Positions 4,230 through 25,822 of a DNA stretch of 64,000 nt are shown one piece after another. Position numbers and translations under genes: made by a program. This DNA comes from Macrostomum lignano. Lineage: Eukaryota. Under the pieces are notes generated by a model. The model was not told the DNA's origin. It was given only the letters and a program-made list of their open reading frames with translations, and searched no databases. Within the stretch, counting starts at the first letter, position 1. The number at the start of each line of letters is the position of its first letter. Where the stretch lies: contig NIVC01000135.1 in the NCBI GenBank assembly GCA_002269645.1, forward strand, positions 293,334-357,333. The letters run 5' to 3'.

Positions 4230-4520
4230 TATAATGCAGGTGCGTACACACTGTAGGTGCAAATTGAGTATAATACACTAAAATTATAATACATAGCATA
4301 TAATGTAGGCGCATTTTAAACAATACATTTTTGCATAATAACCCGCAGGTACAAATTTCAGTGCATAGGCTAAAATACACACTCTGCAAATTGAGTATAA
4401 TGCAGGAAAATTGTGACATATACAACATATGTATGCAAATTAAGCATATAATGTAGGTGTAAAGTAAAATACAAGCCACCGGCCCCTAGTAAACAGACAC
4501 GCCCCCAGAGCCAGGGCCGG

Positions 4521-5120: not shown

Positions 5121-5170
5121 GGGCACATAGGGGAATCCCAGGCGTAAAAAGACAGATCCTTATCTTTCAC

Positions 5171-8100
5171 TCACTCCCGAAAGCCATACGGGCGGCTAGC
5201 GGCCCCATACACCCTCTTAGTCATTACGCGCTGGAAAGTCTTGTCCATCTCCAGGGTCCGGATTGTACAGCTAGCCTTATCGCGCCTGAACTGGGCCTGG
5301 GGCAGGCGTACAGTCCCGCCGTGACGCAGAATTTCCTGCAGCTCGTCCTCGCGCTCGGAAATCTCGGGGGTGACTCTGATGCCCTTGCACTTGAGTACCG
5401 AGTACAGCGACCTGTCGGGCTTCTCCACCACGTACCGGTAGAGCTTGGGGCCTCCCGTGGTGAACTGTACCATGCGGCAGCCAGCAGGTACCTCGTCAGT
5501 CCACTGCCCCAAACTCGAACCGCCCGGAGGCTCGTACTCGCCCGGGGAGCAGCGGTATACGACCCTGGGAGGAGGAGAAGGATAAAAAGTGTTAAGGGGA
5601 GAAAGAGAGACAGAGACAGTGAAAAAATTACTTACGAATCGGTATCGGCGTAAATGACGCGGGTTCCTAGACCCTCCAGAGCCTCGTAGAGTCGCAGCCG
5701 GGCGTGGGAGGTGGTGAAAACGCCAATAGGTACATTAGCGTACTTGAACGCCCGCTCGCCAGCGCCGCCAAATCGGGGCTTGTACTCGAGCATCATGAAG
5801 CTCTCCCCAATTGGCTCGCACGACTTGACCTTGATCGAGGGGTCTGTCAGGCGCTGCAGCCACGCCTCGTAGCTGTCCACAATCTCTGTGGAGGTCAGGT
5901 CGTCGCGCTGGCAGAATTTGCCCCAGAGCCTGCAGGGGAAAAATAAATTTTATGTAAGTAGAAAAACACGGTCCCCACTGCAAGTAGAAAAAACTTACGA
6001 GTTTAGAAAAATCTTGGCCACAAAGCGCAGGCCGGGATTTTCATCCACCTTTTCCAGCCGGACGCCTTCGCGCTCGAAAAAGCTGGCCATGTAGGCAGCC
6101 TTGGCGTCCTCAGCCATCCCCGGCGAACCGCTAGACTCTGCTTTGAGCTTCAAAAAAGTGTTTACATAATCTGCAAACAGGCCCGTGCGAGTCTCGGTCC
6201 AATAGGCCAGGGCATGAACTGACTGCAGCTTGTAACCCAACTGCAGGGCTTTGTGGAGCTCTGGGGTCGACCACGTGCCGCGGAGCATTCTCTCAGCGTC
6301 GGTGTGTGTACACTCGCTGCTGCACTGGGTCTCCATGCAGACGCGGCAGAGGCCGAAAACCAGCTTCTTGCTAATCTTGGCTGGCAGTAGCGGAATGTGG
6401 AGATTGGTTGGCGGCAGAATTGACACCTCGGCGATGCCAAAATACCGGGCCAGCTGCTGCTCATCCAGTAGATGAGGCTCGGGGTGGTGAACCGGGTGCC
6501 CGACAGGGTACTTGTCAAACTTGTTGACAGTCGGGTAGAGCGACACCTAGGGGATAAGAGGATAAGATAAACTCAAACCCATGTCAACTGTGTGTGTGTA
6601 CAAGTGTACAAACTTACCACATCCCGATAGCGCAGCTCTACAGTCTCGGTGGCCTCGGCGTGCGGGACAAAAGCCTCGGTACGGCCGCCAAACAGGGCAT
6701 CCTCCAGGCGAATAGGCTGCTGGACTGGCGCTCCCTCGTCCTGATAGTCGTGCTCCCACAGAACACGCACATTGTATGCAGTGGAGAGCAGCCGGGTGAA
6801 GCGCTCAGTCTCCTCATAAATCGCCCGCATTGGCTGGTTCTTGAGCGGGTGCAGCACGTCGCCGTTGGGGAAGCACTTGGGACAGCCATGGAAGAAGCAG
6901 CCATGAAACTGCAGCACTGTCCTGGTCTCTGGGCCGAAGCCGTCGACCTTACGGCCCATGGCGAAAGCCTCGCCGCCCGAGTCCGCTGTCCGCAACCGGC
7001 CGCCAAACTCGGTTGCATTTAAATGTGCCAGCCAGCACCGCGCCTTGTGCGACTGTACATCCGATCGGCGGGAAATCACCCCAAGAGTGTTGGGCTCCAT
7101 AAACTTGGTGGTGAATACCGACATGGCCAAGCCCGCAATGGTGTTGGATTGAACAAATGCGTCCAGTCCGCAAATGTCCTTAATCAGGCGGGCATATTTC
7201 AGGCAGCCTTCCCGCAAAATTAGCGTGTCCTGCAGGCAATAGTCCAGATACTCCTTATTAAAATTAAACACTTTGCCCTCCTGCTTGGCCAGCCAGTCGG
7301 CGATGGAGTCATGCTGCTTGTTTTTCTTTCCTCCGTACATATCAATTGAGCAGTAGGGACCGACGTACCCCCAGTTTTCCGGCTGGTTAAACACGTGCGG
7401 GAAATCTCCTTTGGTCAGTTGGGTGCCCAAACCAAGCGCCTTTGGGAATTGCGCCAGACCAATAGGGATGAAATTGAGGCTGTCCTTGAAGGTGATCTTG
7501 TCGCACTTCATGTACATTAGGCGGCTGTTCTGGAAGATCACCTGCGGCTTCTTCTTGGCCAGTCCGTTGAGTAGGGCGCCGAGCAGGAGGAATGCGTCAT
7601 ACGCAGAGCCATTGTGCGCAATAGCAATTGCCCCCTGCTTGAACACACTAGTCAGCCAGCAGTAAAAGGCATCGATAGAGTGTGGCCCGACAGATACAAA
7701 CTCTCGCATCCCACAGGCGCAGTCATTGTGCGAGACACAGCTCGTGAAATCGAGTGCCAAATCGCGTCCCGCAATGCAATTGGCTGAGCTGTGTAGTCCC
7801 CCGCACGCGCTGCAGCGGGGCCTGGGGAAGAGTTTGGGACACGCCTCGCAGGAGGTGGCAGCCGTAACCAAGTGTACCCGGTGCTGCTTGCCAGAGTCCA
7901 CGTACGTCTCGAAATCATAGTAAACATACGGGGCGCTAGACTCTTTGGCTTTGGGCGGGGTGACAAAGCACTCGTGGGTGGCAGTTTCGTCGTACTGCTT
8001 GCAGACTGGACACTTGGCGTAACCGCACTGATGCTCAGGGGGCTGGCCTACTTTTAGTTCTTCTAGATAGCCACACGTGCCGCAAACGTGGACCGAATCA

Positions 8101-10139
8101 CAGCGAGATCTGCCCGCCTTATTCTTGCGCTTGTGATTTTCTAGGCACTGAGCATTATAGCAATTTAGCCCGCAATCATGGCATCTTACATATGCGCGGT
8201 TTGCCTTACAGTTGGAGCCCGGAGTCTTGCATGTACTGCAGGCATCAGCGCACTTGTGCTTCTCATAATTGCAATCATAGGCCATCTCGCACTTGGGGCA
8301 GTAGTGATCGGAGCCGAAAAACGCAGGCAGCTTGGTAACCACATTAAAGTGCTGCTCGACCAGGTGCAGGTGCAGAATCTCGGTGCCAGGCAGGTTGAAG
8401 ATGCACCTGTTGGCCTCCTCTGCGCGGTACACGCGTACACCAAAATCGTGCCCGGGACGCAGCCGGTTCAGGGCTCGGATCGCTTCGGGCAGTGCATCCA
8501 CCCCGAAAGGACCGGCCTGCGAGACGGTTTGAAGAGTCTGTGTAGGGGGTAAAATATTTCTTTTAGTATTCCCTGATACTGTGTAAAATTCTTTTAGTAT
8601 TCCATGATACTGCGTAAAAATTCTTATCAGAAAATATATCTTTTAGTATTCCACGATACTGTGTAAAAATTATTATCAGAAAATTTTAGTATTCCTTATC
8701 GTAAAAATTCTTATCGGAAAAATACTAGAAACTTACCGAGTAGAGACCCGCTTCGATTTGTAGCTCAGTCGCAAGCTTAGTCTGGGCGGGCGAATTGGCC
8801 TTGATTGTACGCCACACCTGCATGGTGATGGACTTGGCCACGAATTGCAGGTAGGCGCAGGCCACGACCAGAGCGCGCAGCAGGCATCTCTTGTCCGAGT
8901 TGGTGATGCGGACATAGTGCTTTGAAAAAGCGTGCCTCTCTTCTAGATGCTTGTTCTCGAGAGCACATCCACCTCGAGGCACCCAGGCCTTTAGCAGACG
9001 GACAGAAAAGTTGCCTGACAATACAGTGGCATCCGACTGCACAATCTTGTCAATGTGCTTAAACAACAATTCAGCCGTCATGCGGGCTGCACGCACCGGG
9101 GGAGTATGGGCCGCTTTGAGCATATTGTCGCTCTCGAATTTCGCGGCCATAAAGTCATCACCAGCCAAATCTTGCTTGAAAACTTCGAGCATGTCGGCAA
9201 ACACCTCCCGCAAATCTTCGGTGTTGGTAATACGCACCACATACTCGACACCCTTTGCCCTAAACTTGGGCAGGTCACGCTGATTATCCAGCCGGGCCGT
9301 AAAACCTGCATGGGTGGAATGGGGGAGTGTGAGTCAGCCCGGTTCTGTGTGGGAAATGGGGGGTGGGATAACTCACCCGGTCCGGTAACAGATTCCGGCT
9401 GTGTTGGCGGGACAAACGCGTCTGAAAAAACACAAGGAGATAAAAAACCAGAAGAATCTGTCATTTTCCTGGCCCCAGCGTGTTTCCCCGCCCTAGCCCA
9501 GCAATTTCTTAACAGAGTTTACTCTGCTGTCCCCGCAGCAACTCTCTGCAATTTCTTATCTGCACCCCCGCTGCAGCCTGTCGCAGCAGTCTTTGTTTAC
9601 TCACCCCTGCAACTCTCTGTCGCAGCAATTTGCACCTAGCTGCAGCCTGTCTGGGTAGCGCCCTATCTGCAGCCCCAGTCTGTCCCAGCAACTCTCTGCC
9701 CCCACCTGGCTGAACTTGTCTAGCCTGCCCCAACGATTCTGCAGCAATTTCTTATCTGACGCAGCACCCTAGCAACTGTCTGTTTTTGCAGCAATTTCTT
9801 ATCAGCACACCCCTCCTTGTCTAGACAACACCCCCCTAGCAGCAATTTCTTATCAGCACACACCCGGCTGAAACTTGTCTAGCCCTCCCCTGCAACTCTC
9901 TGTTACAGACCCTGCCGCAGCACCCCACCCTAGCAACTCCAGTCTAGACCCCTGCAGCTGTCGCAGCAGTCTTTGTTGTTTACTCTGCGGTCCCACAGAC
10001 CCTGCAGCTGCTGCTGCTGCTCAGCCCCTACCCCCACCCTAGCAACTACAGTCTAGACAGAAATTAATTAAAACTTACCATAAAGACGTTGCCTCTTGTC
10101 AGCCAGGAAAGCAGTTGCGGTGGCGCTGCGTTTAGCCAT
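5171..10139 (-). CDS. polB: Protein-primed family B DNA polymerase (Polinton type), 6 exons, ~1261 aa
   Basis: Minus-strand exons 10139-10079, 9305-8737, 8537-6618, 6546-5999, 5929-5636 and 5564-5171, joined by GTAAGT...AG introns, give one open frame (3786 nt). Motifs: ExoI YYDFET, ExoII AHNGSAYD, ExoIII YCLQD, motif A DV|VSLYP, motif B KIFLNS|LWGKF, motif C YADTDS|, GPKLY, KCKGI. It also has an N-terminal OTU-like Cys (SDKRCLLRAL) and His (EQHFNVV), a Cys-rich region, and a VSR-like insert (KVDGF...QFHGCFFHGCPKC). Confidence 0.92.
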
Positions 10140-10210
10140 TTTGCAAACAGAGAGTGTGAGAGAGCGAGCGGAGAGAAGGATTATCTCTCTACCCTGGCTC
10201 TGGGGGTCTG

Positions 10211-10333
10211 TATATATACTAAAAAATCTGCTCAGCTCGCCTGTTATTGGATAAATCGCCAAAAACCAACCAAAATCATCAAAAATCACCCCCAAAATCA
10301 CCACCCACCCCACCTCCATCCGGGGTATATAAG
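10211..10333. promoter_or_regulatory. Divergent Pol II promoter region between polB and the PC4-like ORF
   Basis: TATATATA at 10211-10218 with a minus-strand CCAAT at ~10247-10251 upstream of the polB ATG (10139); TATATAAG at 10326-10333 upstream of the ATG at 10385. Confidence 0.5.
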
Positions 10334-10384
10334 GCGCTGCACGGCTGTCAGAGAGCTCTCTGCTGCTGCCGCTGCTGCTAAATC

Positions 10385-10918
10385 ATGTCTTCTATCTCTC
10401 TATACGAAAACTTTGTGGCGCGGAAGCCCACATTTGAAACTGAACACAACTTGATTGAAATTCGGCGTCTCTACACCAACGAGGCTGGAGTGTGGAAGGA
10501 CGGCTTCCCTGCAATCTACTTGAGCGAGCCAGAGTGGAAGAAGCTCGAAGCTGCGCGCCCTGACCTGGAGGCTGCTGCCCGCCTTCACGTGAACAAGCGG
10601 GTCCTGTTGGGCAATTTCAAGGCAGTTGAAGCTTCGCGAGGGAGGATCCGTTTGCTGCGCAATTGGCTCAATCGGGACCCAAAGTTTAATTGGCGCTACA
10701 CGATCGAATTCACGCCTGAACTGTGGCGCAGGCTGTTTGCCGCCCGTTTGGACAAGCTCTTCAAGCCGGCACCTGAGGCACCCCCTCCAGCCAAGCGAGT
10801 CAAGACAGACACGCCTCCGGTAGCCGGGACTGAGGTGGATGTTCTTCAGCTCATGGGTCTCAAACCCTACCAATCTCCGCCCTGGGAAAATCTGTTTAAC
10901 GAGGGTTGGGACTGCTAG
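10385..10918 (+). CDS. Tandem PC4-like ssDNA-binding protein, 177 aa
   Basis: LIEIRRLY...GFPAIYLSEPEWKKL resembles the PC4 core (LIDIREYY...KGISLTPEQWxxL), with a second degenerate copy IRLLRNW...YTIEFTPELWRRL and a C-terminal NLS-like PPAKRVK. Assigned by eye only. Confidence 0.6.
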   Translation: MSSISLYENFVARKPTFETEHNLIEIRRLYTNEAGVWKDGFPAIYLSEPEWKKLEAARPDLEAAARLHVNKRVLLGNFKAVEASRGRIRLLRNWLNRDPKFNWRYTIEFTPELWRRLFAARLDKLFKPAPEAPPPAKRVKTDTPPVAGTEVDVLQLMGLKPYQSPPWENLFNEGWDC

Positions 10919-11034
10919 TTTCCTATTGGTTCGCACCGCCTCACTCGATCCGTCTATATAATTAGTGTTTCCCCCCTCTCCAGAGAGTCAAACCCTATCT
11001 CAGCTCTAATACTTTACTCTCTGTTGATTCTAGC

Positions 11035-12049
11035 ATGTCCCGCCGAGCTCTATCCAACCTCTGGGATAATAATCGCCCGACTGAAGAGTTAACCAGCCTC
11101 GACGGGGATATCCCTGAACACATAGTTCCCCTAGGCACTGAAAACAACGGAAGTGATAATTGGGAGGCTGATCAATATCTAGCTTGGGCTATGTCCTATG
11201 ATAGCGACACCGAGTCTGAAGTTTTTGACCTCCCGCTGCTGGCTATCGGCGGGGTTGTGAACGGTGCCCCTGCTGCTACTGCCTCCGATTTGACTACCGC
11301 CTCAGCCGCCCTCTTTGACGTCTCTGTTGAGGAGCTGACCACAACCGGCCCTGCCTCTGCTGCGCCCGTCTCTGCTGCTGCCGCCTCTACTACGCCCGTC
11401 TCTGCTGCTGCTTCAACTACCTCCCACCGGGCCTCAATATCATCAGCCGCTACGCTCCTTCTCTTCGACGACGAGGACGAGGATATGTCTGAGGAGATCG
11501 CCGTGGTTCGTGAGCGCTTTCCTCGCATTGTGGCCTCATTTTTCCGCGGGGACATTGACTGGCTGAGGTCTCGGCATCCTGGCGGGCTGCCCTCCCAAGC
11601 TACCTTTGTCAGAGCCTTTAATCGGGTTCTTGATACTTTGGTTGCGAGGGGTGCCGGCCTACGGGAGGTGTTGGAGGCTGAGACTCTGCACCAGGACTGG
11701 TTGATGGGGCGCAATTCGTATGCCCCCGACTCTGAGGCGTACCTGGCCGGTCCGGGAGCGCGGCCAACTGCGTGGGATGAGCCCGTCGCATGGCCCTCCA
11801 ACTGGGAGGAGCACCTTTCGTTGGTGCGCTATACAGCGTCTCTACGTCTGTGGCGGCTGGAGGACGATTTAGATTTGGTAAGATATTACATTATATACAC
11901 AACTCATCTAATCATATACCTTGCATATATTCTATCTACATTGACTGTTATAATTTCCACATTGCCAGTCATCCGACTACTGCTTCGAGAGCGTGGAGGA
12001 AGAGGCCGCGTACGAGACAGCCCTGAGGGAGCGTATGGAGATTGACTGA
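11035..12049 (+). CDS. Unknown acidic protein, probably 2 exons (11035-11877, 11969-12049; ~307 aa)
   Basis: Long ATG-initiated ORF preceded by TATATAA (10955-10961). An AT-rich segment 11878-11968 bounded by GTAAGA...CCAG splices in frame to give SSDYCFESVEEEAAYETALRERMEID-stop. The unspliced ORF ends at 12045. Confidence 0.6.
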
Positions 12050-12597
12050 TAAGGGTATTTCTCTTTGTACGCGGTTTGGGGAACCCAACACTGTACACTG
12101 GGTAGGTTAGAATGGGCGCTAGCTGGGGGCCTCTATGTGTGTATACACGGGGGTTAAAAGACCAATTCTGATAGCTCGCTCCTAGGGAGGAAATTGGCAG
12201 AGGGGCCGGCCCAAAAACTGAAATGGGCTGGCCCCGGGCTCGAGTCCACCCACCTAAAATATGGAGGGTCATTACAACCTAATGACTCGAAATACTTTCA
12301 ACGCAATTGTACCTATAAGAGGGTTAGGGCGGCGGTGGTGGCGAAAACGGGCGGCTAAAACCTCCCTTTTGGGATTTCCCCGAACCGCTTTTGTTTAATA
12401 TTTATGCACCTGCGGGTTAGACAATATTTACTATTTAGTCGGTGTGACATTATTTACGCGTCTGTTGCACCTGGGCGTTTGCCTATAATCTGATTATACA
12501 TGCGTGCCTGTATTATACAACTACACCTTATGCATGCCTTGTAAACCTGCTTTATACATTAATCCGATATGTATCGAAAGTACACTTTGTAAACCTG

Positions 12598-13263
12598 CTG
12601 TGTGTATTTCCACCTATGTAGCGCCTACAGTACCTGCTTTGTCTATTTCTGCCCATACACCTACATTGTGTGTTTTTGCTGCTCATATGCTCCAATATGT
12701 ACATTTTAATATGCAATATGCGTCATTATTCACCTACCAATATGTTTTATCTACATTTTTATGTAAATATACTCAATTTCACCTACTATAAGTAGTTTTC
12801 ACTAGCCTAATATCGTTGACTGCATATCGTACATATCGGGAGATTGGTAGAGTGTACACTCGGGGTGCCTGCGGCATGGGAGAGTGTACACTCGGGTGCC
12901 TGCAGCTTGGGAGAGTGTACACTCGGGGTGCTTGCAGCATGGGGCGCCTGCGGCATGGACGCCTGCTGCTCTGGAGGGAGGGTATACATATCGGGAGGGT
13001 GGGCATACATATCGGGGTACATGTCGGGAGGGTGGGCATGTCGGTAGGTGCGCCTGCGGCTGGGGAGGGTCGCCGGTGGCTCGGGAGGGTCGCCTGCGGC
13101 TGGACGGCGCTTGGCGCCACGCGCCTGCGGCGCGCGCGCGCCGAGCGCCGATATCGATACGGGTATCGATCACCTAGTGATCGGGGCGCCAGCCAATGAG
13201 AGGCGAGGAGGGTTGACACCCACCCCACCTCCAAAATCAACACATCTGCCAGTCCTTAGTAGT
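12598..13263 (-). repeat. Right terminal inverted repeat of the Polinton-like element
   Basis: Reverse complement of 3558-4229; ends CCTTAGTAGT followed by the TSD AGGGAT. Confidence 0.88.
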
Positions 13264-14464
13264 AGGGATGGATAGGGGGATTCTTTGGATCGGGGATTCT
13301 ATCGATGGGGGTTCTTTGGATAGGGATTCTCTGCATGTAAGATTCTATGGATGGGCAATTCTTCAGATAGGAGAATTCCTTGAATGGGGAATTCTTGGGA
13401 TCGGTGATTCTATCGATGGGAGGTTTTTTCGATGGCGGCTTCTTTGCATGTGAGATTCTTTGTATCGTGGATTTTATGGGTGGTGTATTCTTTGGATGGG
13501 GATTCTTTGTATGGGAGATTCAGTTGGGTGAAATTTTATTGCGTAGGAAAACTGTGGCTGGAGTTTGGACGGAAAGCCCCAACGGGAGTGTGAATTGGCT
13601 AGCTAAGGAAATTGCTTCACTAATCTTGCTGGGGGTACTTTCTATCAGGGGATGCTTGCTATCGGAAGGACGCTTGCTCTTGGGGGATGCTTGCTCGGAA
13701 GAGAATTTTAAGATGTCAAGATTTACAAGGGGAATTATTGAGATACATGTATAAAATCTTACCTTGGGGAATTAATGACATGTGAAGGCTTAAGAGGGAC
13801 TTGCTGAGATGTCAAGGCTTGTGGGGGAATCGCTGAGATGTCAAGGCTTGTGGAGGGAATTGCTGAGGTGTGAAGGCTTAAAAAGGAATTGCTGAGGTCT
13901 TAAGTCTCGGGGAGGGGAATCGCTAAGATGCCAAGGCTTTGGACGGGGAGAAATTGCTGAGATGCCAACACTTACTGGAGGAATTACTGAGATATCAAGG
14001 CTTACTGGGAGAATTACTGAGATATCAAGGCTTGGGGAGGGGAATTACTGAGATGTCAAGGCTTTGGACGGGGAGAAATTGGTATCATGTCAAGGCTTGC
14101 GCCGGAATTGCTTAGATGTCAATGCTTAGGGAAAATTTCTGAGGTGTCGAGGCTTGGGGAAATTGCTGAGATGTTAAGTCTTGGGGGAATTCTATGGATT
14201 GATGATTCTTTGGATGAGGGATGCTTCTAATGGATAAATTTTTGGGCAATTTCTTCGGTGGGGCATTGTTTCGATGGAGGGTTTTTTGAATGGGGGGTTC
14301 TTTAGATAAATGATTCTTTAGATGGGGGGTTATTTGAACGGGGGTTCTTTAGATGAGGGGATTCTGGATTCTTTGGCCAATTATTCTTTTGATGGGGGAT
14401 TATTTAAGGATGTGAATTCTTAGAGGGGGGATTTTTCAGAGAAGGAATTTTTTGGATATGGATG
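13264..14464. repeat. Continuation of the GGATTC / GCTGAGATGTCAAGGCTT compound satellite
   Basis: Same motifs as 2733-3557; lies between the Polinton-like element and the Gypsy element. Confidence 0.75.
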
Positions 14465-15364
14465 TGTTGTAACCCGGGTTGGCTTGGGTGCCCAGTCCCG
14501 AGTACAATATATATTATATGTGATATAACAGGCGTTGTGACGCTCTGTCTGTACTTTTATGAATACGACGAGCAGGCGTGGCGACGCTCTGCGATAATAA
14601 TTCGATCCCTCTGGTGTTGTGACACTCAGAGTTCACGCTGCGGCTCGAGGTGTGGTGACACTCTCGAGTGCTTCTATTCTCTATACCGTAGGGCGTACGC
14701 AATATATATGGTAAACGGTACCGTACTACAGAAGCTATATGGTCTCCCGGCGTTATGACGCTCTGGCAAGAATTCGGCCTAGCAAGCTTCCCGGAAAGAA
14801 AGGACTCAAACAGCAGGCGGCTTACCAGTGGCCAGATGACTGTTCACCGTTTATTATTCGCAGGTCTCAAGCGCAGTTTCCGACTTCTTCTTAATTCTCC
14901 AAGACTCTTCTCAATTAGGCTATTGTGTTTCTTTTATCCAAGTAGCTAATGTTGCTGTTTCTTTTATCAAAGTAGCTAATGTTGCTGTTTCTTTTATCAG
15001 GTCTCGCGCTTGCACTCTCGGAGCACACCAAAACACAAAAAGCACGCAGGTGGTGGGCAAGAGCCAGAGTCGCACCATAAATAGCACCCAAACCCTGGGG
15101 CAGACGGCCCCACCGGCTAAGCTCACCAAAACAAACCACGCCGGCCCAGCCAATCAAAACCCCGCCTAAGGGGGGAGGGGCTGCACCCGCGCCAAAGCTG
15201 GCCCGGCCGCAGCCAACCAGCCCTGAGCACGGGGCAGGGGCACGGCTGGGGAGGGGCACGCGCAAAGCCCGGCCGGCGGCCAAACCCTGCTACGCCCGCC
15301 AACCCCCCCAACCAGCCCCAAAGTGCAACGCGCCCTGCCAACTGACAAGGGCGCATGCACTACA
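14465..15364 (-). repeat. 3' LTR (900 bp)
   Basis: TGTTGTAACC...GCACTACA; I could find only about 3 substitutions versus 24333-25232. Confidence 0.95.
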
Positions 15365-15376
15365 CCCTCCCCTCCT
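15365..15376 (-). promoter_or_regulatory. Polypurine tract
   Basis: Plus-strand CCCTCCCCTCCT equals minus-strand AGGAGGGGAGGG, immediately adjoining the 3' LTR. Confidence 0.85.
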
Positions 15377-15594: not shown

Positions 15595-16842
15595 TCAAAG
15601 CTGGCGCCACAGAAAACCATCGCAGGTGGCCGGCAGGACGCGCAGATGGCCGGCAGGAAGTGCAGACGGCCGGCAGGGCACGCAGGTGGCCGGGCGGGAC
15701 GCGCAGGTGGCCGGCAGGACGCGCAAGTGGCCGGCAGGACGCGCAAGTGGCCGGCAGGAAGTGCAGATGGCCGGCAGGGCACGCCGGTGGCCGGGCGGGA
15801 CGCGCAGGTGGCCGGCAGGACGCGCAAGTGGCCGGCAGGACACGCAGGTGGCCGGCAGGGCACGCAGGTGGCCGGCAAGACGCGAAGGCGGCCGGGCGAG
15901 GCGCGCAGATGGCCGGCAGGACGCGCAAGTGGCCGCCGCAGAAGCCGGCAGGAAGCGCACTGGCGCCGCACAGCTGCTGAGCCATTCCCCCAGGAAGCTT
16001 GACCCCACTAGCATGCAAATAAACCCATACAGTACGAGCGTAACAACATACGTACAATTAAGCAGAAAATACGGTATGAATCGGAACTGGGCACCCCAGC
16101 GAACCCGAAGTCCAGGGAGACCGACGCAGCTTTTCAGGACCTCGAGCAGCCTGCCGGGCCGGCGCAAACCGAACAGCGGGATGAGCTCGTGACAGAGCTG
16201 TCGGACGAAACAATCAAAACTCTGCCTAGACCAGTAACGGCGGCCTGCTCTCTGACGCTTTACCGGAGCGATATCTCTGCGGATGAAGAACAACGCCTGC
16301 AGCAGGACCATTGACAGTGCGCTCCTCGGTTCTCGCTGCGAGTCTCGAAACAGCCGTCTCATAGCCGTGAGCACTGACACGATTCCGTCCGACTGTCCAG
16401 CCAAAATATGCTTCATCAAACGATGGCGGAGCTGACGCGCAGCTGCCGATAACGACAGCTTTTCATCATCCCATATTGCTCCCGACGCGCGATGTGAGAC
16501 AACCTCCTTGCTTTCCGGTACATCGATCTCCATAGCTTCTGACTCACTACTTCCGGAGGAGCCATCCGATGCCAGCAACTCGTCTTCTTCTTCTGTGTCG
16601 ATGCTACACTCATCCGACTCCTCGCTCTCATCGTCGTCCGAGATTAGAATGTAGCCATCCGCTTCGTAATCGTTCCTCTGTCCCTGTCTCCCCTGCCTGA
16701 GACCAGCTTCCTTGCGCTGAGCTTCTTCAACTTCTCGCCTTTGCTGTACTCCCTCTTCGATGTCCGCCGGCATTCTTACACCAGTAGGAGGTATGAACGT
16801 CATTGCGAAGGTTACAGCCTCGTCATACTGTAGTGTGAGCAT
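15595..16842 (-). CDS. Unknown accessory ORF in the Gypsy 3' region (up to 415 aa; the first ~265 aa look like real protein)
   Basis: ATG-initiated, same strand as gag-pol. It has a coiled/charged N-terminus, an acidic tract after YILISDDD and a helical basic domain. The C-terminal ~130 aa derive from a GC-rich GTGGCCGGCAGGACGCGCA repeat (15620-15945). Confidence 0.5.
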   Translation of the reverse strand: MLTLQYDEAVTFAMTFIPPTGVRMPADIEEGVQQRREVEEAQRKEAGLRQGRQGQRNDYEADGYILISDDDESEESDECSIDTEEEDELLASDGSSGSSESEAMEIDVPESKEVVSHRASGAIWDDEKLSLSAAARQLRHRLMKHILAGQSDGIVSVLTAMRRLFRDSQREPRSALSMVLLQALFFIRRDIAPVKRQRAGRRYWSRQSFDCFVRQLCHELIPLFGLRRPGRLLEVLKSCVGLPGLRVRWGAQFRFIPYFLLNCTYVVTLVLYGFICMLVGSSFLGEWLSSCAAPVRFLPASAAATCASCRPSARLARPPSRLAGHLRALPATCVSCRPLARPAGHLRVPPGHRRALPAICTSCRPLARPAGHLRVLPATCASRPATCVPCRPSALPAGHLRVLPATCDGFLWRQL

Positions 16843-18005
16843 CTTTGCGTGTAAATTGTCTGCATTAGTTTCTATATTGTTATTGAATTGTTATTTTGCT
16901 TTAGTTTAGTCATGCGTTTTTGGTGTACTTTTTCTTGTTAGTTAGAATCAATTTTGCGTAAACAGGTTAGAAATCAGACGCCATCTGTGACTCAGCGGAG
17001 GGTTGAGTTTTGTCTGCAAACCCCAGCTTTGCGCGGTCAGCCAATCAGAACCGGCCTGGACCCTGGCACGCGGCAAGTTTCAGTTCTACCCGGCGCCGCG
17101 GGCACAGTTCAATTCGGCTTAAGCAAGCGGCCGGCCAGACGACCACCACCCGGCTTGAGGGGGGTTTTGAGGGGTTGACTCTGGCTATATATGAAAGTGT
17201 GTTTTGGCAATCGGATCTCGCTTCTCTCTCCTTTCCCCGGTTTTGTCTTGTCCAGTTCCCGGCCGGTGGCCCGACTTTTCCTCCCCTTGTTGGTTCGCGC
17301 TTTGAGGCGTTTTGATTCATCACCCCCGGTCCATATCTTTGTTCCCGCCCAACCGCAGTAGTCTTGTGGCGTAACGTCTACGGCAAATTCCTGTCTGAAG
17401 TCGTCGCTATCAAGCGCGGTTAGACAGAGACTGTCGGATCTGATCAAGTACGCGGCCTCGACCCCGAGGGCCCCAGTGTTACACTGAAGGGCAGTGCCGA
17501 TAGAACTTAGTCGGTACTCCGTTGAACGGTCGGTTCGGCAGGGCTCTCGTTTGAGAGTAGGTTCTGGTTTAGGCCAGGGGTTAGGAGTCTTCTCCGTGGT
17601 CCTGTGTTCGGTGCCTTCTTCTTTTTCAGCTGAGATCCGCTTGCCAGTTGCGTAATTAATTTATTAGTTATTAATCGTTATTATCATCTGTGTCAATTTA
17701 TCTGCGCCGCGAATTGCATCTTGTAATTGAATCTTGTTGAATCTTGTAACTCAGCTAATCAAATTAAACCGTCAATCAAGTTAGTTATTCTGAAATAGGA
17801 TTATCACTCTCTAAATCTTTCGGTTTGTGTTTCCTCGTGTTCTTTATTTTCTTGTACTGTACCTGCGGCTATTGGAGAAGACTGGTAGAACTCGCCGACC
17901 GGCGATAGGCGATTAGGATTAATAGTTTTAAAATCTCCGAACGCTCCAAGTAGGTTTGTCTAGGGCCTAATTAATTGCTCACCGTGCATGCTATTATCTA
18001 ATTGC

Positions 18006-18236
18006 CTATTTATCACAATACGGGATTGATTTATCGCCCAACTGGTCGTACATCGCTCGGCGATATGGACACGATAGAATTCTACCAGCAGTCTCAATTT
18101 CTTGGAAACGGCGTCCTGCGAGTTCCTTGTCCGGGTGCTTGTCCGGGTGCCAGAAGAGCGCTAGCTGTCGATAGACTCGCCTGATCTCGGCACGTTCGGC
18201 TATGTGTCCGACTTGGAGGACAGCGTACAAATCCAT
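18006..18236 (-). CDS. Stand-alone J-domain (DnaJ/Hsp40-like) protein, 76 aa
   Basis: MDLYAVLQV...EIRRVYRQLALFWHPDKHPDKELAGRRFQEIETAGRILSCPYRRAMYD matches the J-domain consensus along its length, with an intact HPD motif. The ATG is directly preceded by the acceptor-like TTGCTTTGCAG. Confidence 0.85.
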   Translation of the reverse strand: MDLYAVLQVGHIAERAEIRRVYRQLALFWHPDKHPDKELAGRRFQEIETAGRILSCPYRRAMYDQLGDKSIPYCDK

Positions 18237-18650
18237 CTGCAAAGCAACGTACTCAAACCTGCGACACACTGTCCCTGACTCCAGATTTTACTCCTGCTCC
18301 CCTCTTGCCAGAGCGTCATCTCCTCGGACCGTGGCCCTGCATCGTAAAGTCCCAGCGCAAATTCGAGTTTTCACCGGATGCCAGTCCGAATACCCTCCAC
18401 CGATGCATAGATTTTGTAGGCAAAATTTGATTCTCGTCAAAACTTCGATGAAGATGCGATTAAAATGACTTAATGACGCATTAACGAATTTCTTGAATGA
18501 CGCATTGGCGAACTGCTCGTACTCATGATGAATGATGCATTGATGAAGTACTCGTATTTATGATGAATGACGCATTCGCGAAATATTTTTCTGGCTTTTA
18601 ACGATAATCGCATATGAAACTGATGAGACTTCACGATGACGAGTAACCCA

Positions 18651-20135
18651 TTAGAATGTCACTGGCTGGCCGTAGCGATCCGGCGGCCGTCGCAACCTTC
18701 CGGACCTTCGAGGCTCAGGTGCAGCTTCCACCGGGTTATGAGTAGGCTGCGGGTCGTCAACCAACTCCATCTGCTCTTCCAGCACCTCGGCGACTTCCTC
18801 GGCGTCCTGTGGCGGCATCAGTTGAGGCCGAGTCCAAGTCTCGCATTCCGCATCTGTCTCCGAGTCCGTCTCGTCGACCACCTCCGGCGGTGCCGCGGTC
18901 CTAACTGGTGTTTCCAGGGCGGCCGGTCGAGCGAACTTCCGGAGGTTGTTGAAGTGGACGAACTTCGACTTTTTACGATTTGACGGGTTTTCCACTTTGA
19001 AGAGCACCTCGGATCTTCTTTCGAGCACCTTCACTGGGCCGAGCCAGCTTACGTGAAACTTTGCGGCTTCGTCTGGTTTCAGGGCGGGGCTGTAGACGAA
19101 GACATGGTCACCCTCCTGAATATCGGATCCTCGGGTTCTTTTATCGTACTGGTCCTTCTGTCGCCGCTGATAAGTATTCAACTGCTGTCGAGCAGCGCGA
19201 TGAGCTGTCTGCAATTTGTCTTCTAGCTCCTTGACGAAATTTACATGCGAATCGACAGGCTGTGGCGGCTGGTCAGTCAAGTCTATCGGTAGGCGCATCT
19301 CCGTGCCATAGACCATGTAGTGGGGAGTATAACCCGTTGCTCGATGCACGCTTGATCGGTACGCCATTAACGCAGAGCTGACGAATTCTTCCCAGTCGTT
19401 TCGTCCTGAGTCCTCTAGGCAGCACTTGAGGATGGATTTTAAACTTTTATTGAAGTTTTCTACTTGTCCATTTCCGCTCGGATGATAAGCTGTTGTTCTG
19501 GACTTGCGGATCTCGAGTATCCTGCACATTTCGCGCATCACTTGCGATTCGAAGTTCCTTCCTTGGTCACTGTGCAAAGTACTCGGACATCCATGCTGGC
19601 TAATCCATCGATTGAAAAGCGCCCTTGCCACCGTCCTTGCCTTCTGGTTGCGAAGCGGGTACGCGTCAGGCCACTTCGTAAACGAATCTTGGACTGTCAG
19701 GAGATAAATGTTTCCAGCCTTACTCCGCGGTAGCGGCCCGACAATGTCCATCATGACGCAATCGAATGGTGCTGCGAATGTCAACGGTTGCAGGGGTGCT
19801 CGGTTTCGCTTGCCCGGCTTTGACTTGCAGCAGGTGGCACAACCGCGAATATATTCTTCAATGGCACGAGACAATCCTGGACGCCAGTAGCGCTGAAGCA
19901 CTTTAAATTTTGTCTTCGCAAAGCCCATGTGGCCACCTCCCACTCCCTCGTGTAGGGTTTTCAAGATACGATCCAATGCCTTTCGTGGCAGCACCATTTG
20001 ATACTCATCGCGCCTGTCTTTGTTTCTCACAAGGAGCACTTTCTCTTGCAGCACCAGGTCGTCTTTTCGAGTCCAGACGGCTCTAGCCAGTGGACTCCAA
20101 GCTGTCTCGCTTTTATCTGGACTGGGTTTGAGCCA
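18651..20135 (-). CDS. pol: Integrase part of Gypsy pol (separated from RT/RH by an apparent 1 nt frameshift near 20135)
   Basis: HHCC zinc finger (HEGVGGGH...CATC), catalytic MDIVGP, HSDQGRNFES and NGQVENFN, C-terminal RRSGRLRRPPDRY. The frame is open upstream to ~20135 (KPSPDKSETAWSPLARAVWTRKDDLV). Confidence 0.9.
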   Translation of the reverse strand, partial: WLKPSPDKSETAWSPLARAVWTRKDDLVLQEKVLLVRNKDRRDEYQMVLPRKALDRILKTLHEGVGGGHMGFAKTKFKVLQRYWRPGLSRAIEEYIRGCATCCKSKPGKRNRAPLQPLTFAAPFDCVMMDIVGPLPRSKAGNIYLLTVQDSFTKWPDAYPLRNQKARTVARALFNRWISQHGCPSTLHSDQGRNFESQVMREMCRILEIRKSRTTAYHPSGNGQVENFNKSLKSILKCCLEDSGRNDWEEFVSSALMAYRSSVHRATGYTPHYMVYGTEMRLPIDLTDQPPQPVDSHVNFVKELEDKLQTAHRAARQQLNTYQRRQKDQYDKRTRGSDIQEGDHVFVYSPALKPDEAAKFHVSWLGPVKVLERRSEVLFKVENPSNRKKSKFVHFNNLRKFARPAALETPVRTAAPPEVVDETDSETDAECETWTRPQLMPPQDAEEVAEVLEEQMELVDDPQPTHNPVEAAPEPRRSGRLRRPPDRYGQPVTF

Positions 20136-23100
20136 AGCGCTTCCTTTACTGTTCTCAAATCGTCGTCTTGATCCTGCTCGCTTGCCAGATTGCCGGCTGA
20201 GAATCGTTCAAATTCGACTGCATTTAGTCCTTCTGGATGCTGCGCACATGCCGGGCATGTCTCCGCTCCGAAATGTCTCCGTACTGGCTTCCTCGACATT
20301 GCGTCCGCGTTGCCATGCGATCGACCTGGTCTGTGAACGATGCGGTACTGAAATGGAGCCAACTTCTCCAACCAGCGAGCAACCTGTCCCTCGGCGTCAC
20401 TGAAGTTTTTTAACCATTGCAGGCTGCTGTGGTCCGTTCGCAGACAGAACGCTTTTCCCAGCAGATAGTATCTGAACTTCATGATGAAAGTCACAACCGC
20501 TAGTAGTTCTAAACGAGTCGTACAATAGTTGCGTTCGGCTTGATTTAGTGTCTTGGACCCATAGGCGATCACTCGTTCTGCTCCATCTGGCTGGACTTGA
20601 GAAAGTACCGCTCCTATGCCCATCTTCGAACTGCCATCAGTATCGAGGATAAACTCTCCGGCATCCGGGGAGAAATCCGGATGAGCCATAACCTCTGAAC
20701 TTGTCATTCGTTCCTTCAATGTTTCGAACGCCAGCTGCTGTTCCGTTTTCCATTCAAACTTTGCGTCTTTTGTTGTCAACCGAGTTAGAGGCGCTGCTAT
20801 TGCGGCGAAATCTTTAATAAACTTTCTGTAATAGCCACACAGGCCCAAGAATGAATGCGGCTCCGTCGAGGATCGCGGTGTTGGCCAGTTCTTCACTTCT
20901 TGAACTTTCTCCTCATCGGTACTGATGCCAGCAGCCGACAGCGTGTGACCGAGAAATTTTACTTGCTTTTGCAAAAAGTGACACTTCTGGGGCTTCAGGC
21001 ACAAATTTGCTTGCCGCAACTTGCTGAATATTTCCTCCAGTCTTCTCAGGTGTTCATCCACGTCGGTTGACCAAACCAGTAGATCGTCGATGTAGACGAG
21101 ACAGGTTTTCCACATCTGCTTGTCCAAAACGGCTGCCATCAACCTGGTGAATGTTGCTGGGCTGTTCACTAAGCCGAACGGCATAACCTTCCATCGAAAT
21201 TGTCCGCGATGCGGCACTGCAAACGCCGTCTTGTCCTGATCCTGAGGTCTCACCCCTACTTGCCAAAACCCGCTGTGAAGGTCCATTGTCGAGAAGATCT
21301 TGGCACCGTGTACTGCCTCCAGCGCATCATCGACCCTCGGCATCGGCACTGCATCCTTGACGGTGACCTCATTCAACTTCCGATAATCGACGCACATCCT
21401 CATTTCCCCTGATTTCTTCTTTACGCACACCAAAGGAAAGCACCATGGTGACTGTGCTTCTTCGATCTGCCCCTTTTCCAGCAACTCGTTGACTTGACGA
21501 TCTACTTCTGGCTGTAAGTGGGGAGGCAGACGACGCGGTGGGATCTTGATTGGGCGCGCATTCTCGGTGTTAATTTCATGCTCCACCACGGTAGTTAACT
21601 TGCTTGCAGTCTGCTTGGTCGTGAACACATCGCCGTAACTCCGGACAAGGATTCTAAATTCTTCGTCTTCTTTCGTCGACAGTCCACAGTCGCCGTACGA
21701 GTTTGGTAGCAAGTCTGCTTCCGAAGGGCTGTTGCTGCCTTGGAACTTCGGCTCTTCCTGTGGATCGTCTCCTGACTCTACGGCTAAGAGCTTGATGGTG
21801 TTCAACGGTTCGGTGGATTCTAGGGGGCAGAACCACCCGAGCGTACAACCTTGGCGAATTCTGACTGGCTCCTCCGTGATATTGATGAGTCGAGTCGGCA
21901 GACGGCTGCCGCTATTTGGGATCACTAAGGCCTTAGCAAGCCAGCGGCCAGCTGCCAAATCGTTCGCCCCGAGATTCTCAGTTAGACCGACACACCCTCT
22001 GTTCCGTCGTCCTTTGCTCTCCAGCCTTGCTGACAGAACTGCTTGATGACCTGGCGGTATTGTGCTGGACCTTGTCGCCAAAATTCTGCAAACGATCGGG
22101 CGCTCAGCTTGCCATCGGAACGGGATTGCAGTGTCCTGCACTGAAAAGACAGCTGTCTTGTAGTCGATGACGCAACTGTTGTCCCTGCAGAAGTCGGATC
22201 CCAATACCAGTTGGTACTTCACTCCGCTGACTACCAAGGCTGGAGTATCTATTACTTTATCAGCGATTGACAGTCGCAACAGGACTGTTCTCTCGATTTC
22301 GATCGGGCTGCCGTTTGCTAAGCTAACATAGCCTTCAGCACCGGCCAAATCTCTGACGCTCTGTTTCGGCATACTTTGGTAAGCTTCCCGTGAGATAATG
22401 GTGCAGGAAGCTCCCGAGTCCACTAGCGCGTTCACCCTCCGCCCTGCGATTGAGGCCGTAACATATATCGACGCAGGATTGATTTGAATTGACTGAGGTG
22501 CGTTGACGGTGATTGGGCGCTGCGACTGTGCAAAACCGGCTAGTTGATGGTGAGGTGCAGTACCGGACGCTGGAGGCTGATGAGACGCAGTACCGGACAC
22601 TGGAGGCTGATGAGACGCAGTACCGGACACTGGAGGCTGATGAGACGCAGTACCGGACACTGGAGGCTGATGAGACACAGTACCGGACACTGGATGCTGA
22701 TGAGGCGCAGTACCGGACACTGGATGCTGATGAGACGCAGTACCGGACACTGGATGCTGATGAGACGCAGTACCGGACACTGGATGCTGATGAGATACTG
22801 TACCGGACACTGGAGGCTGATGAGACGCAGTACCGGACACTGGATGCTGATGAGACGCAGTACCGGACACTGGATGCTGATGAGATACTGTACCGGACAC
22901 TGGATGCTGATGAGATACTGTACCGGACACTGGAGGCTGATGAGACGCAGTACCGGACACTGGATGCTGATGAGACGCAGTACCGGACACTGGAGGCTGA
23001 TGAGACGCAGTACCGGACACTGGATGCTGATGAGGCGCAGTACCGGACACTGGATTCTGATGAGGCGCAGTACCGGACACTGGAGGCTGATGAGATGCGG

Positions 23101-23206
23101 TACCGGGCGTTTGATGATGATGAGATGAGATGACGGCTTGTTCGGAGGCTGACGAATTGCAGGGGCTCACTTGCCTCCAGCTGGTGGGCCCCTCTTGCCT
23201 TTTCCC
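20136..23206 (-). CDS. pol: Gypsy pol: repeat linker, aspartic protease, reverse transcriptase, RNase H
   Basis: LVDSGAS (PR), VDYRKLN / MPFGL / YIDDLL (RT), TDGS / ELLAV / TDHSSL (RH). It lies in the -1 frame relative to gag, with candidate slippery heptamer GGGAAAA at minus-strand 23206-23200. Confidence 0.93.
22553..23110. repeat. 30 bp tandem repeat (~18 copies) inside the pol frame
   Basis: Unit GCAGTACCGGACACTGGA(G/T)GCTGATGAGAC; encodes (S/P)HQ(P/H)PVSGT(A/V) decapeptides between the gag stop and the protease. Confidence 0.95.
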
Positions 23207-24099
23207 GGCTTTGGGCACTGGAATGAGAGATGGCCTATCTCCCCGCAGTTGTAGCACTTGACACCGCTACGCTGCTTCGAGCTGGACGGAGCCGCCTGCT
23301 TGGATTGTTGCTTGTCTTGAAGGCCGGGTTCGGGCGGCTCCTGCTGGCCCTGCTGCATCTGCTCCATCCGTCGGATCTTTTCTTCCATTTCCTTTACTTT
23401 TTGACGCAGTTGGCGTAGCTCCTCGTCTTTGCCGGTGTCACCTGTCGACGTTTCGGTGGCAAAGGCATTCAGCCCAGCCCTGGGTCTGGCTTTGGACTGG
23501 GTCGAAGACGCCTTCTGGGCTGCTTCAAGTTGTCTTACTGTTCGAATGGCATCGGTGAGGTTGGCCGGCTGCTGCAGGTACAGTCTTTCTCGGACAGTGT
23601 CGGTTACTCGAACGCCTTTTAGAAATCTGTCTTTCGCCAGCTCTGTCCTGGTGTCGGCATCCGCGGTGGGGAAGGCATTGCGCACCAACTCCAGCAGCTC
23701 GTCCCCGTAGGTCTCCACAGACTCCTTGTCTAGCTGATCTCGATTCGATAATTCAAAACGGTAGTCCTGGGCTGTTCTGTTCATGGTGAACCGCGCCAGC
23801 AGTGCATCCGTGAATTCCCCGTACTCGATGTCGTCTGCCAAGTCCAGCTTATCAACGGCAGCGTAGGCTGTTGTGAGGACAAGTAGGCCGATCAGGTGCG
23901 GCCGCCTGGCTTCTTCTTCTATACCGACAGCCTCGCAGTACTCGTTGAAACTCTGCAGCCATAGGCTGAAATTCATCGTTGGTATGTACTTGGGCGGCTT
24001 CGAGAGTCGTGGCGCTGCTCGGTCGGCGTTGGCTCTGAGGCGCGCAGCCAGCGCATCGATCAGTTGGTCCATAGCTTGATCACCCATGGCCGAAGTCAC
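23167..24099 (-). CDS. gag: Gypsy Gag, 310 aa
   Basis: ATG 213 nt downstream of the PBS, capsid-like helical region, coiled coil, CCHC knuckle CYNCGEIGHLSFQC. Confidence 0.92.
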   Translation of the reverse strand: MTSAMGDQAMDQLIDALAARLRANADRAAPRLSKPPKYIPTMNFSLWLQSFNEYCEAVGIEEEARRPHLIGLLVLTTAYAAVDKLDLADDIEYGEFTDALLARFTMNRTAQDYRFELSNRDQLDKESVETYGDELLELVRNAFPTADADTRTELAKDRFLKGVRVTDTVRERLYLQQPANLTDAIRTVRQLEAAQKASSTQSKARPRAGLNAFATETSTGDTGKDEELRQLRQKVKEMEEKIRRMEQMQQGQQEPPEPGLQDKQQSKQAAPSSSKQRSGVKCYNCGEIGHLSFQCPKPGKGKRGPPAGGK

Positions 24100-24311: not shown

Positions 24312-24329
24312 GTCCCTGTTCGGGCGCCA
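24312..24329 (-). promoter_or_regulatory. Primer binding site, tRNA-Lys type
   Basis: Minus strand reads TGGCGCCCGAACAGGGAC, 3 nt after the 5' LTR. This 18-mer is the known complement of the tRNA-Lys(UUU) 3' end. Confidence 0.92.
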
Positions 24330-24332
24330 ATT

Positions 24333-25232
24333 TGTTGTAACCCGGGTCGGCTTGGGTGCCCAGTCCCGAGTACAATATATATTATATGTGATATAACAGG
24401 CGTTGTGACGCTCTGTCTGTACTTTTATGAATACGACGAGCAGGCGTGGCGACGCTCTGCGATAATAATTCGATCCCTCTGGTGTTGTGACACTCAGAGT
24501 TCACGCTGCGGCTCGAGGTGTGGTGACACTCTCGAGTGCTTCTATTCTCTATACCGTAGGGCGTACGCAATATATATGGTAAACGGTACCGTACTACAGA
24601 AGCTATATGGTCTCCCGGCGTTATGACGCTCTGGCAAGAATTCGGCCTAGCAAGCTTCCCGGAAAGAAAGGACTCAAACAGCAGGCGGCTTACCAGTGGC
24701 CAGATGACTGTTCACCGTTTATTATTCGCAGGTCTCAAGCGCAGTTTCCGACTTCTTCTTAATTCTCCAAGACTCTTCTCAATTAGGCTATTGTGTTTCT
24801 TTTATCCAAGTAGCTAATGTTGCTGTTTCTTTTATCAAAGTAGCTAATGTTGCTGTTTCTTTTATCAGGTCTCGCGCTTGCACTCTCGGAGCACACCAAA
24901 ACACAAAAAGCACGCAGGTGGTGGGCAAGAGCCAGAGTCGCACCATAAATAGCACCCAAACCCTGGGGCAGACGGCCCCACCGGCTAAGCTCACCAAAAC
25001 AAACCACGCCGGCCCAGCCAATCAAAACCCCGCCTAAGGGGGGAGGGGCTGCACCCGCGCCAAAGCTGGCCCGGCCGAAGCCAACCAGCCCTGAGCACGG
25101 GGCAGGGGCACGGCTGGGGAGGGGCACGTGCAAAGCCCGGCCGGCGGCCAAACCCTGCTACGCCCGCCAACCCCCCCAACCAGCCCCAAAGTGCAACGCG
25201 CCCTGCCAACTGACAAGGGCGCATGCACTACA
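24333..25232 (-). repeat. 5' LTR (900 bp)
   Basis: Near-identical to 14465-15364; adjoins the PBS; flanked by the TSD GATG. Confidence 0.95.
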
Positions 25233-25822
25233 GATGGTTAGGGGGATTATTTAGATAGGAATGGATGGGGAAATTCTTTGGATAAAGATGAATAGGAGGA
25301 TTCTTGGGATAGGGATGGATGGGGGATTCTTTAGATAGGGATGGATGGGCGATTCTTTGGATAGGGATGGGTGGGGGGATTCTTTGGATAGAGGGTTTCT
25401 GTGGATGGGGGATTTCTTGAATAAGGGATTCATTGGACGGGGAATTCTTCAGATGGGAGGATTCCTTGAATGGGAAATTCTTCGGATCGGGGATTCTATC
25501 AATGGGATGGGATGGGGATGGGACGGGAAGGATTGGTATTCTTTGCATGTGAGATTCTATGGATGGGCGATTCATTAAATAGGGAATTCTACAGATAGAG
25601 GATTCCTTGAATGGGGAATTCTTCGGATTCGGGGATTCTGTCGATGGGGGTTCTTTGTATGGGGATTCTTTGGATGAGGGTTTTTTGCATGTGAGATTAT
25701 TTGCATCAGAGAGATTCTTTGGATGGGGGGTTCAGTTGGGTGAATTTCTTTTGCGTGGGAAAACTTTGGTAGGAGTTCTGACGGAAAGCCCCAACGGGGG
25801 TTGGAATTGGCTAGTAAACAAA

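Follow-up and report, generated by a model that had tools for sequence, protein, structure and literature searches.

The window, the whole 64,000-nucleotide stretch of Macrostomum lignano DNA that was analysed, contains on its minus strand a 10.8-kb Ty3/Gypsy LTR retrotransposon carrying a third reading frame (ORF3) that begins with a J-domain. In the order of the element its features are:

25233-25236 and 14461-14464, 4-bp target duplication flanking the element
24333..25232, minus strand, 5' LTR of 900 bp with TG...CA ends, containing AATAAA and a donor-like CTG|GTAAGC at 24693
24312..24329, minus strand, primer-binding site
23167..24087, minus strand, gag (Retrotrans_gag, zf-CCHC)
22545..23126, minus strand, tandem array of a 30-nt unit separating gag from protease; unbroken sister copies read through it in the pol frame
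20027..22372, minus strand, RT and RNase H part of pol, split across frames in the window copy
18651..19997, minus strand, integrase (H2C2, rve, p58_C) with its stop at 18651
18237..18250, minus strand, acceptor-like sequence whose CAG end directly precedes the ORF3 ATG, a candidate cis- or SL trans-splice site
18018..18236, minus strand, 5' part of ORF3, its first 73 codons, with J-domain, HPD and an element-specific CPY.R..YD signature
16829..18017, minus strand, solo LTR of an unrelated Gypsy family, 1,189 bp with TG...CA ends and a 4-bp duplication, giving an early stop at 18006
16099..16828, minus strand, 3' part of ORF3 with helical extension, acidic disordered linker and C-domain, here severed from the J-domain
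16627..16653, minus strand, SIM-like motif YILISDDDE in the acidic linker
16099..16476, minus strand, C-domain, a predicted five-helix bundle with a basic loop
15365..15376, minus strand, polypurine tract
14465..15364, minus strand, 3' LTR

The assignment to Ty3/Gypsy follows from the paired TG...CA LTRs, target duplication, primer-binding site and polypurine tract, together with the gene order of gag followed by protease-RT-RNase H-integrase, and no Pfam Chromo match was found in the window integrase, at the C-terminus of which a chromodomain would mark a chromovirus. The two LTRs show 4 mismatches over a 903-nt alignment (99.6% identical), indicative of a young element. We take the primer-binding site to be of the tRNA-Lys type, which with the 4-bp duplication presumably hints at an Osvaldo-like clade. 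The main clades reported for M. lignano in the accessible text of PMC12801592 are Gmr1/Osvaldo, Mag and CsRN1. In each of five sister copies fetched in full, pol is a single frame of between 1598 and 1682 codons, which marks the family as young, with members that look intact, inside a clade that is old and still spreading; another copy (L089:5553-7787) is broken just past integrase by the RT frame of a non-LTR retrotransposon. Elsewhere in the window a ~9.7-kb unit (3557-13264) with 600-700-bp inverted repeats (80-85% alike) holds fragments of a protein-primed DNA polymerase B (PF03175) and two ORFs with no Pfam match, and is either Polinton-like or a smaller element of the pPolB kind. At ~44960-49740 lie Helitron-like ORFs that encode a Pif1 helicase domain, and GA-rich repeat units of 1.2-3.7 kb, strongly skewed between the strands, form an array over ~25900-64000.

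The 76-aa frame at 18006-18236 lies on the minus strand, and its residues 2-64 match Pfam DnaJ in full (E 1.8e-18), which bears out the J-domain with HPD recognised in the initial annotation, which had also rightly placed it between the integrase stop (18651) and the polypurine tract (15365-15376) within both LTRs and noted the acceptor-like ttgctttgcag that abuts its start. The same annotation had regarded this 76-aa frame as intact; its last three residues and stop however derive from the 1,189-bp insertion, and the gene is ~300 aa long. The insert (16829-18017) is missing from all 24 sister copies, whose alignments skip from window position 18018 to 16828, so the 1,189 extra bases are unique to the window copy. 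It represents an LTR from a different Gypsy family: 40 candidates out of 425 were scored, and every one matched. Several such LTRs are paired ~9.3-9.4 kb apart, and the RT of that family is 42% identical to the present one. The donor family has a cold-shock domain (L106:2529-2870; Pfam CSD 2.2e-6, above the cut-off) at the start of its pol frame ahead of protease, and no J-domain there.

In the sister copies the J-domain frame continues into sequence equivalent to window 16828-16099. Among 25 family copies ORF3 is 315 aa long in 13, 344 aa in four, 496-566 aa in three and shorter in five, the window among them, so that 20/25 reach at least 315 aa. The stop at codon 316 is missing from three of the 24 sisters (L005, L017 and L024) and from the window (15595-16842), where the frame runs on into 3' UTR repeats. 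The 76-aa version in the window is an ORF3 copy shortened by the insertion of another element. A genome search for the J ORF gave 142 J-like matches among 150 scored candidates, many of them in multi-copy groups and the best 25 belonging to the window family (family A), which argues that the J ORF is not a chance frame. The M. lignano assembly is described as redundant in the accessible text of PMC12801592, so copy counts overstate the number of insertions.

Seven deep lineages (A to G), with RT identities of 52-68%, have ORF3 after integrase, so that the presence across the family which the initial annotation wished to see checked holds in 25/25 copies examined and extends to six further deep lineages. 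Twenty more distant J loci were fetched, of which six lie after integrase in Gypsy elements, one is of the element type with no pol nearby and 13 are host-like; the fetched stretches of B2, B3 and the L037 copy of D2 contain no pol, the context of D2 being taken from L112 and L113. Lineage D is represented by 25 full-length C-domain matches at a minimum of 98% among 56 matches. Between D and D2 (L039 vs L112) the ORF3 tails are nearly identical and the 5' parts ~59% alike in protein.

The J part is missing from three lineages, H, I and K, which nest among the carriers in both the RT and the integrase trees; this reads as loss. In the integrase tree the clade stands apart from two outgroups (88/96); in the RT tree, where long branches meet, the carriers do not stay together when set against three distant outgroups (p-AU 0.013). 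ORF3 is dispensable, its J part being absent from H, I and K and the HPD being lost in G. The frame of lineage G is open for 558 codons. Comparison of family A with A2 (L088 vs L051) gives 92% nucleotide identity over pol and 69% over ORF3, so the ORF3 cassette moves between families; the contrast of tails and 5' parts in D and D2 is another case of cassette exchange. Beyond the C-domain E2, E3 and G have a TatD-like domain, which stands alone in H (L080:6020-7693, L082:2413-3066, L114:1558-2640, L074:3524-4066); scanning of the A, B, C, D and F proteins did not reveal it.

The comparison with host DNAJ genes, also proposed in the initial annotation, places the element J-domains apart: in a tree of 73 columns with long branches, in which they were set against 14 host and 25 other J-domains (39 in all), a 99/98 branch separates the 14 element J-domains from all the others, and they have no close host relative. 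G, E2 and the host L049 were left out of this tree, the stretch used having no HPD. All 14 element J-domains retain the HPD, and in most of them C-P-Y/F takes the place of the D-P of host J-domains. When 1.84 billion proteins were searched with a profile, full-length ORF3 relatives came only from M. lignano records and five Logan/JGI proteins, and other homologue searches returned four generic J proteins and otherwise only M. lignano records and one Logan record; a metagenome scan with P0015 confirmed 0/146 candidates. The D protein and a host DNAJB each have an exact match among M. lignano records, that of the D protein bearing no annotation beyond 'J domain-containing protein'.

Full-length ORF3 consists of a J-domain, a helical extension, an acidic linker and a helical C-domain. 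In a model from a six-sequence alignment the J-domain occupies residues 1-66 (pLDDT about 90) and the linker (129-197) is acidic and disordered, the SIM-like region having a pLDDT below 50. Residues 1-80 superpose on solved J-domains (Z 10.1, rmsd 4.2, 76 aligned) and the model agrees with the Ydj1 J-domain (Z 9.4, rmsd 1.4, 66 aligned), giving the four-helix fold of about 70 aa with HPD between helices II and III that is expected of a class C J-domain. The C-domain modelled alone from 12 sequences forms a five-helix bundle (pLDDT 86, pTM 0.80). It has no family at the Pfam cut-off and no meaningful match in a PDB sequence search; Foldseek against BFVD and PDB gave nothing at E 0.001, and the best Z of the domain in VIA, 7.7, is helical-bundle background. 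An Atlas feature score of 0.77 for DnaJ-X (Caj1/Djp1-type, with a C-terminal X-domain, PF14308) is a weak lead only; Pfam DnaJ-X was found in 0/12 C-domains at E up to 1, and the D protein yielded nothing from Atlas. No stand-alone host-type copy of the C-domain was found in the places checked. An env gene is a candidate which we rejected: the C-domain is basic and no transmembrane-like stretch or anchor occurs in any of nine ORF3s (top 19-residue hydropathy 0.94-1.56), one of which has an N-glycosylation sequon.

The acidic linker most often carries a short motif that we take to be SIM-like from its resemblance to DAXX and PML, namely a hydrophobic core and then an acidic/serine tail in a disordered region. 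The pattern [VI]x[VI] followed by an acidic/serine run, which was chosen post hoc after the sequences had been viewed and in lineages that are related, occurs in 12/15 ORF3 proteins against 1.4 expected from block shuffles and in 3/142 generic J proteins, and a stricter pattern in 10/15 against 5.3 expected (P 0.01; controls 23/142). It recurs although the linkers themselves can hardly be aligned. In order to model the contact we paired host SUMO (L093) with a 35-residue motif peptide, which scored 0.48 against 0.02 for the best control, weak support by the grading of a tool whose calibration consists of pairs and does not extend to peptides, and for which solved SIM-SUMO complexes may be remembered. 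Contacts agree to at least 90% between runs and the partner pLDDT is 52. The mark of the tool was reached by 51/78 solved and 2/108 mismatched pairs, and scores up to 0.60 took in only 5/78 solved pairs but all four mismatches that passed. The linker of most ORF3s thus has a predicted SUMO-interacting motif. The SUMO gene itself is intronless and present at seven places on four contigs (L090-L096), several of them inverted pairs.

The three exceptions among the 15 proteins are that of lineage G, with its lost HPD, and two that have a chromodomain at the same place; D2, outside the 15-protein test, has one too. This chromodomain lies within ORF3 of lineage D between the J-domain and the C-domain (Pfam Chromo 1.4e-12); among solved structures it is closest to Swi6 (1.4e-10) and HP1-beta (1.1e-9). 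The third cage aromatic, at what we take to be its position, is present in D2 and absent from D and P0012.

In order to address selection we estimated dN/dS by Nei-Gojobori codon counting with bootstrap ranges. ORF3 is under purifying selection, with dN/dS of ~0.1-0.25 in deep pairs, in several of which dS is saturated. Between A and A2 the value is 0.16 (0.09-0.23) for the whole of ORF3 (300 codons), 0.10 (0.03-0.20) for the J-domain and 0.23 (0.12-0.39) for the C-domain; further values are 0.24 in B vs B', 0.16 in B vs B3 and 0.09 in E2 vs E. In D vs D2 the overall value is 0.23 and that of the chromodomain 0.19, and the TatD-like domain gives 0.16 in E2 vs E. Selection is invisible among near-identical family A copies (10 synonymous vs 16 non-synonymous variant codons) and the near-identical pairs C vs L065 and C vs L070 give 1.9 and 0.67, a lack of signal that is expected after insertion. 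The captured, selected co-chaperone put forward in the initial annotation thus finds support in the spread of ORF3, in dN/dS well below 1 and in the HPD of 14/14 element J-domains in the tree; the frame is found in 25/25 copies and not in this one only, and it is not evolving neutrally.

As to expression, YAG stands directly before the ATG in five of the nine lineages and sub-lineages with an ATG start (A, A2, B, B3 and D) against a background of 81/2,196 ATGs, which argues for a used acceptor. An AG lies 1, 1, 4 and 16 nt upstream of the ATG in D2, F, G and C respectively, and E and E2 have no ATG at the ORF3 start position. The D LTR shares the donor-like hexamer seen at 24693, and a donor scan of the B, C, E2, F and H LTRs found none. 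About 30% of M. lignano genes are reported to be SL trans-spliced and 15% to lie in operons (PMC8629364, accessible text), and judging from the sequence the ORF3 acceptor may be either a cis site or an SL trans-splice site. None of the listed holders is recorded as RNA. Contigs of four runs from four studies, the kind of which is a guess, cover 30/30 bins of L068:2150-7400; they run through the acceptor unspliced, and neither a joint nor a loose end was seen at that point. This stretch excludes the LTR and the tandem arrays, so that an LTR donor could appear only as a loose end, and because contigs drop rare forms the unspliced crossing is evidence in neither direction. The contigs differ from the L068 assembly copy by small indels in pol, from which we infer that some pol breaks may be assembly errors. 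Spliced retrocopies were seen at 0/25 family-A loci. A J-only transcript listed in Table S2 of PMC12801592 (MligTCv3c-15711.0) is mildly heat-induced and is not assignable to family A.

Third ORFs between pol and the 3' LTR are known from the bdelloid Ty3/Gypsy elements Vesta and Juno, which encode a DEDDy exonuclease or GDSL esterase, show similar family-specific gains and losses and are typically expressed from spliced messages (PMC5408684, accessible text). The present elements differ from these in carrying a J-domain together with a SIM-like motif or chromodomain and a helical domain outside known families. Polyomavirus large and small T antigens share with ORF3 an N-terminal HPD J-domain followed by a disordered linker with short host-binding motifs, and recruit Hsc70 against the host repressor complex Rb-E2F (PMC11720896, accessible text); ORF3 would be comparable to them by analogy and not by membership. 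In contrast to T antigen, LxCxE occurs in only 1/15 ORF3s, no origin-binding or helicase Pfam domains are present, the J-domain resembles cellular DNAJB/C folds and the carrier is a retroelement. Chromoviruses also encode a chromodomain, of the Swi6/HP1 type seen in lineage D, but here it lies in ORF3 rather than at the integrase end and in only one of the seven lineages. VANC of the Arabidopsis VANDAL elements is another accessory element protein proposed, like ORF3, to lift silencing; it belongs to a DNA transposon and is not known to have a J-domain. Heat-induced LTR families have been described in the same host, linked to heat shock through HSEs in their LTRs (PMC12801592, accessible text), whereas a scan for a perfect three-unit heat-shock element found none in 9/9 LTRs of the present clade or in the solo LTR. 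The accessible text of PMC5408684 contains neither DnaJ nor chaperone, that of PMC6338049 no mention of DnaJ, and that of PMC13524379 no mention of Macrostomum or chaperones; in PMC12801592 the main text has no occurrence of DnaJ, J-domain, Hsp40, chaperone or ORF, and in its five supplements the only place with DnaJ is an expression table listing transcript annotations. We found no precedent for J-domain cargo in an LTR retrotransposon in the literature searched, which lies outside Repbase, GyDB, the earlier M. lignano LTR classification, subscription journals and bioRxiv supplements. Non-env ORF3s are thus already known (PMC5408684 and PMC6338049, accessible text), and J-domain cargo is new within that literature.

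ORF3 is very probably a functional, selected accessory protein, which raises the question as to what it does. J-domains act by bringing Hsp70 to a client that is gripped by another part of the protein. In ORF3 this grip would come from a SIM-like motif in most lineages and from an HP1-like chromodomain in one, both of which point to silent chromatin rich in SUMO and H3K9me, and it is this alternation together with the T antigen layout that leads us to favour, tentatively, a nuclear anti-silencing adaptor that would aim Hsp70 at SUMO- or H3K9me-marked silencing complexes. ORF3 would be made from its own cis- or SL-trans-spliced mRNA and its protein would enter the nucleus, where the SIM-like motif, or in one lineage the HP1-like chromodomain, would bind the silenced chromatin of the element through SUMO or H3K9me. 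The HPD J-domain would then trigger host Hsp70, which would strip the repressor complex from the element such that silencing is lifted. A link from piRNA targeting to heterochromatin through SUMO is reported in Drosophila in the accessible text of 10.1101/2021.07.27.453956. The targets suggested in the initial annotation, namely particle assembly, RT and Piwi loading, are not favoured, as the SIM-like motif, the Swi6/HP1-like chromodomain and the basic helical domain point to nuclear chromatin.

Among the alternatives, an integration factor is one that we consider rather unlikely. Here ORF3 would tether the pre-integration complex to heterochromatic or SUMO-rich chromatin, with Hsp70 uncoating the particle or dismantling the post-integration complex. 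Chromodomains in LTR elements have a role in target choice. They are known accessory domains of such elements (PMC6338049, accessible text); the chromodomain of ORF3 fits integration targeting and anti-silencing equally well, the SIM-like motif can be read in the same way, and the window copy sits amid repeats, adjoining the pPolB element and the GA-rich arrays. What speaks against this role is that ORF3 is a separate frame that is not fused to integrase.

The cytoplasmic assembly chaperone of the initial annotation, in which ORF3 would bring Hsp70 to Gag or RT for assembly or RT activation, we judge unlikely. It would account for the HPD of all 14 J-domains in the tree; DnaJ proteins are carried by many large DNA viruses and phages, and hepadnaviral RT needs chaperones. 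It leaves unexplained the selected HP1-like chromodomain in the linker of one lineage, sister lineages with near-identical RT do without the J part (H vs E), and ORF3 has been swapped without pol (A vs A2), which one would not expect of a protein that is paired with the Gag-Pol of the same element.

Diversion of chaperones, by which ORF3 would draw Hsp70 away from Piwi/Argonaute loading or HSF1 control and lift silencing indirectly, is distinctly unlikely. A decoy has no obvious need for a conserved C-domain and a chromatin-type module, and the heat induction of some M. lignano LTR families through HSEs (PMC12801592, accessible text), which would suit it together with the reported assistance of chaperones in small-RNA loading (PMC5985592, accessible text), is not matched here by a perfect three-unit HSE in the LTRs of the clade (0/9) or in the solo LTR. 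A protective or host-beneficial role, with ORF3 guarding the nucleic acid of the element or serving as antiviral or stress cargo and the TatD-like fusion (E, G) as part of that role, is improbable: the TatD-like domain of E2, E3, G and, alone, H is selected (dN/dS 0.16, E2 vs E) and nuclease ORF3s are described in rotifer LTR elements (PMC5408684, accessible text), but the domain is unseen in the scanned A, B, C, D and F proteins and no stand-alone host-type C-domain was found in the places checked. Passive transduction of a functionless host DNAJ exon, for which the broken window copy and the five truncated copies among 25 could be cited, is very improbable given that ORF3 is retained across lineages at 52-68% RT identity, with dN/dS of 0.1-0.25 and bootstrap ranges below 1 in deep pairs, and that the element J-domains have no close host relative.

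Returning to the anti-silencing adaptor, a broader version of it is a speculative possibility, namely that a clade of animal LTR elements encodes a chaperone-powered anti-silencing factor in which a J-domain and a swappable module act against piRNA/SUMO/H3K9me complexes, from a separate mRNA that is perhaps released by SL trans-splicing in the manner of an operon. To our knowledge few transposon-encoded counter-defence proteins are known in animals. ORF3 is an old, modular and selected gene with a biochemical handle, from the HPD to Hsp70, and with two alternative modules that point at heterochromatin, and it also yields a confidently modelled helical domain outside known families. Under the alternative mechanisms, too, J-domain cargo in an LTR element would be without precedent in the literature searched. 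The host permits transgenesis and natural sister lineages with no ORF3 are available for comparison, which makes it testable whether retrotransposons may oppose silencing through host chaperones, as DNA tumour viruses oppose Rb.
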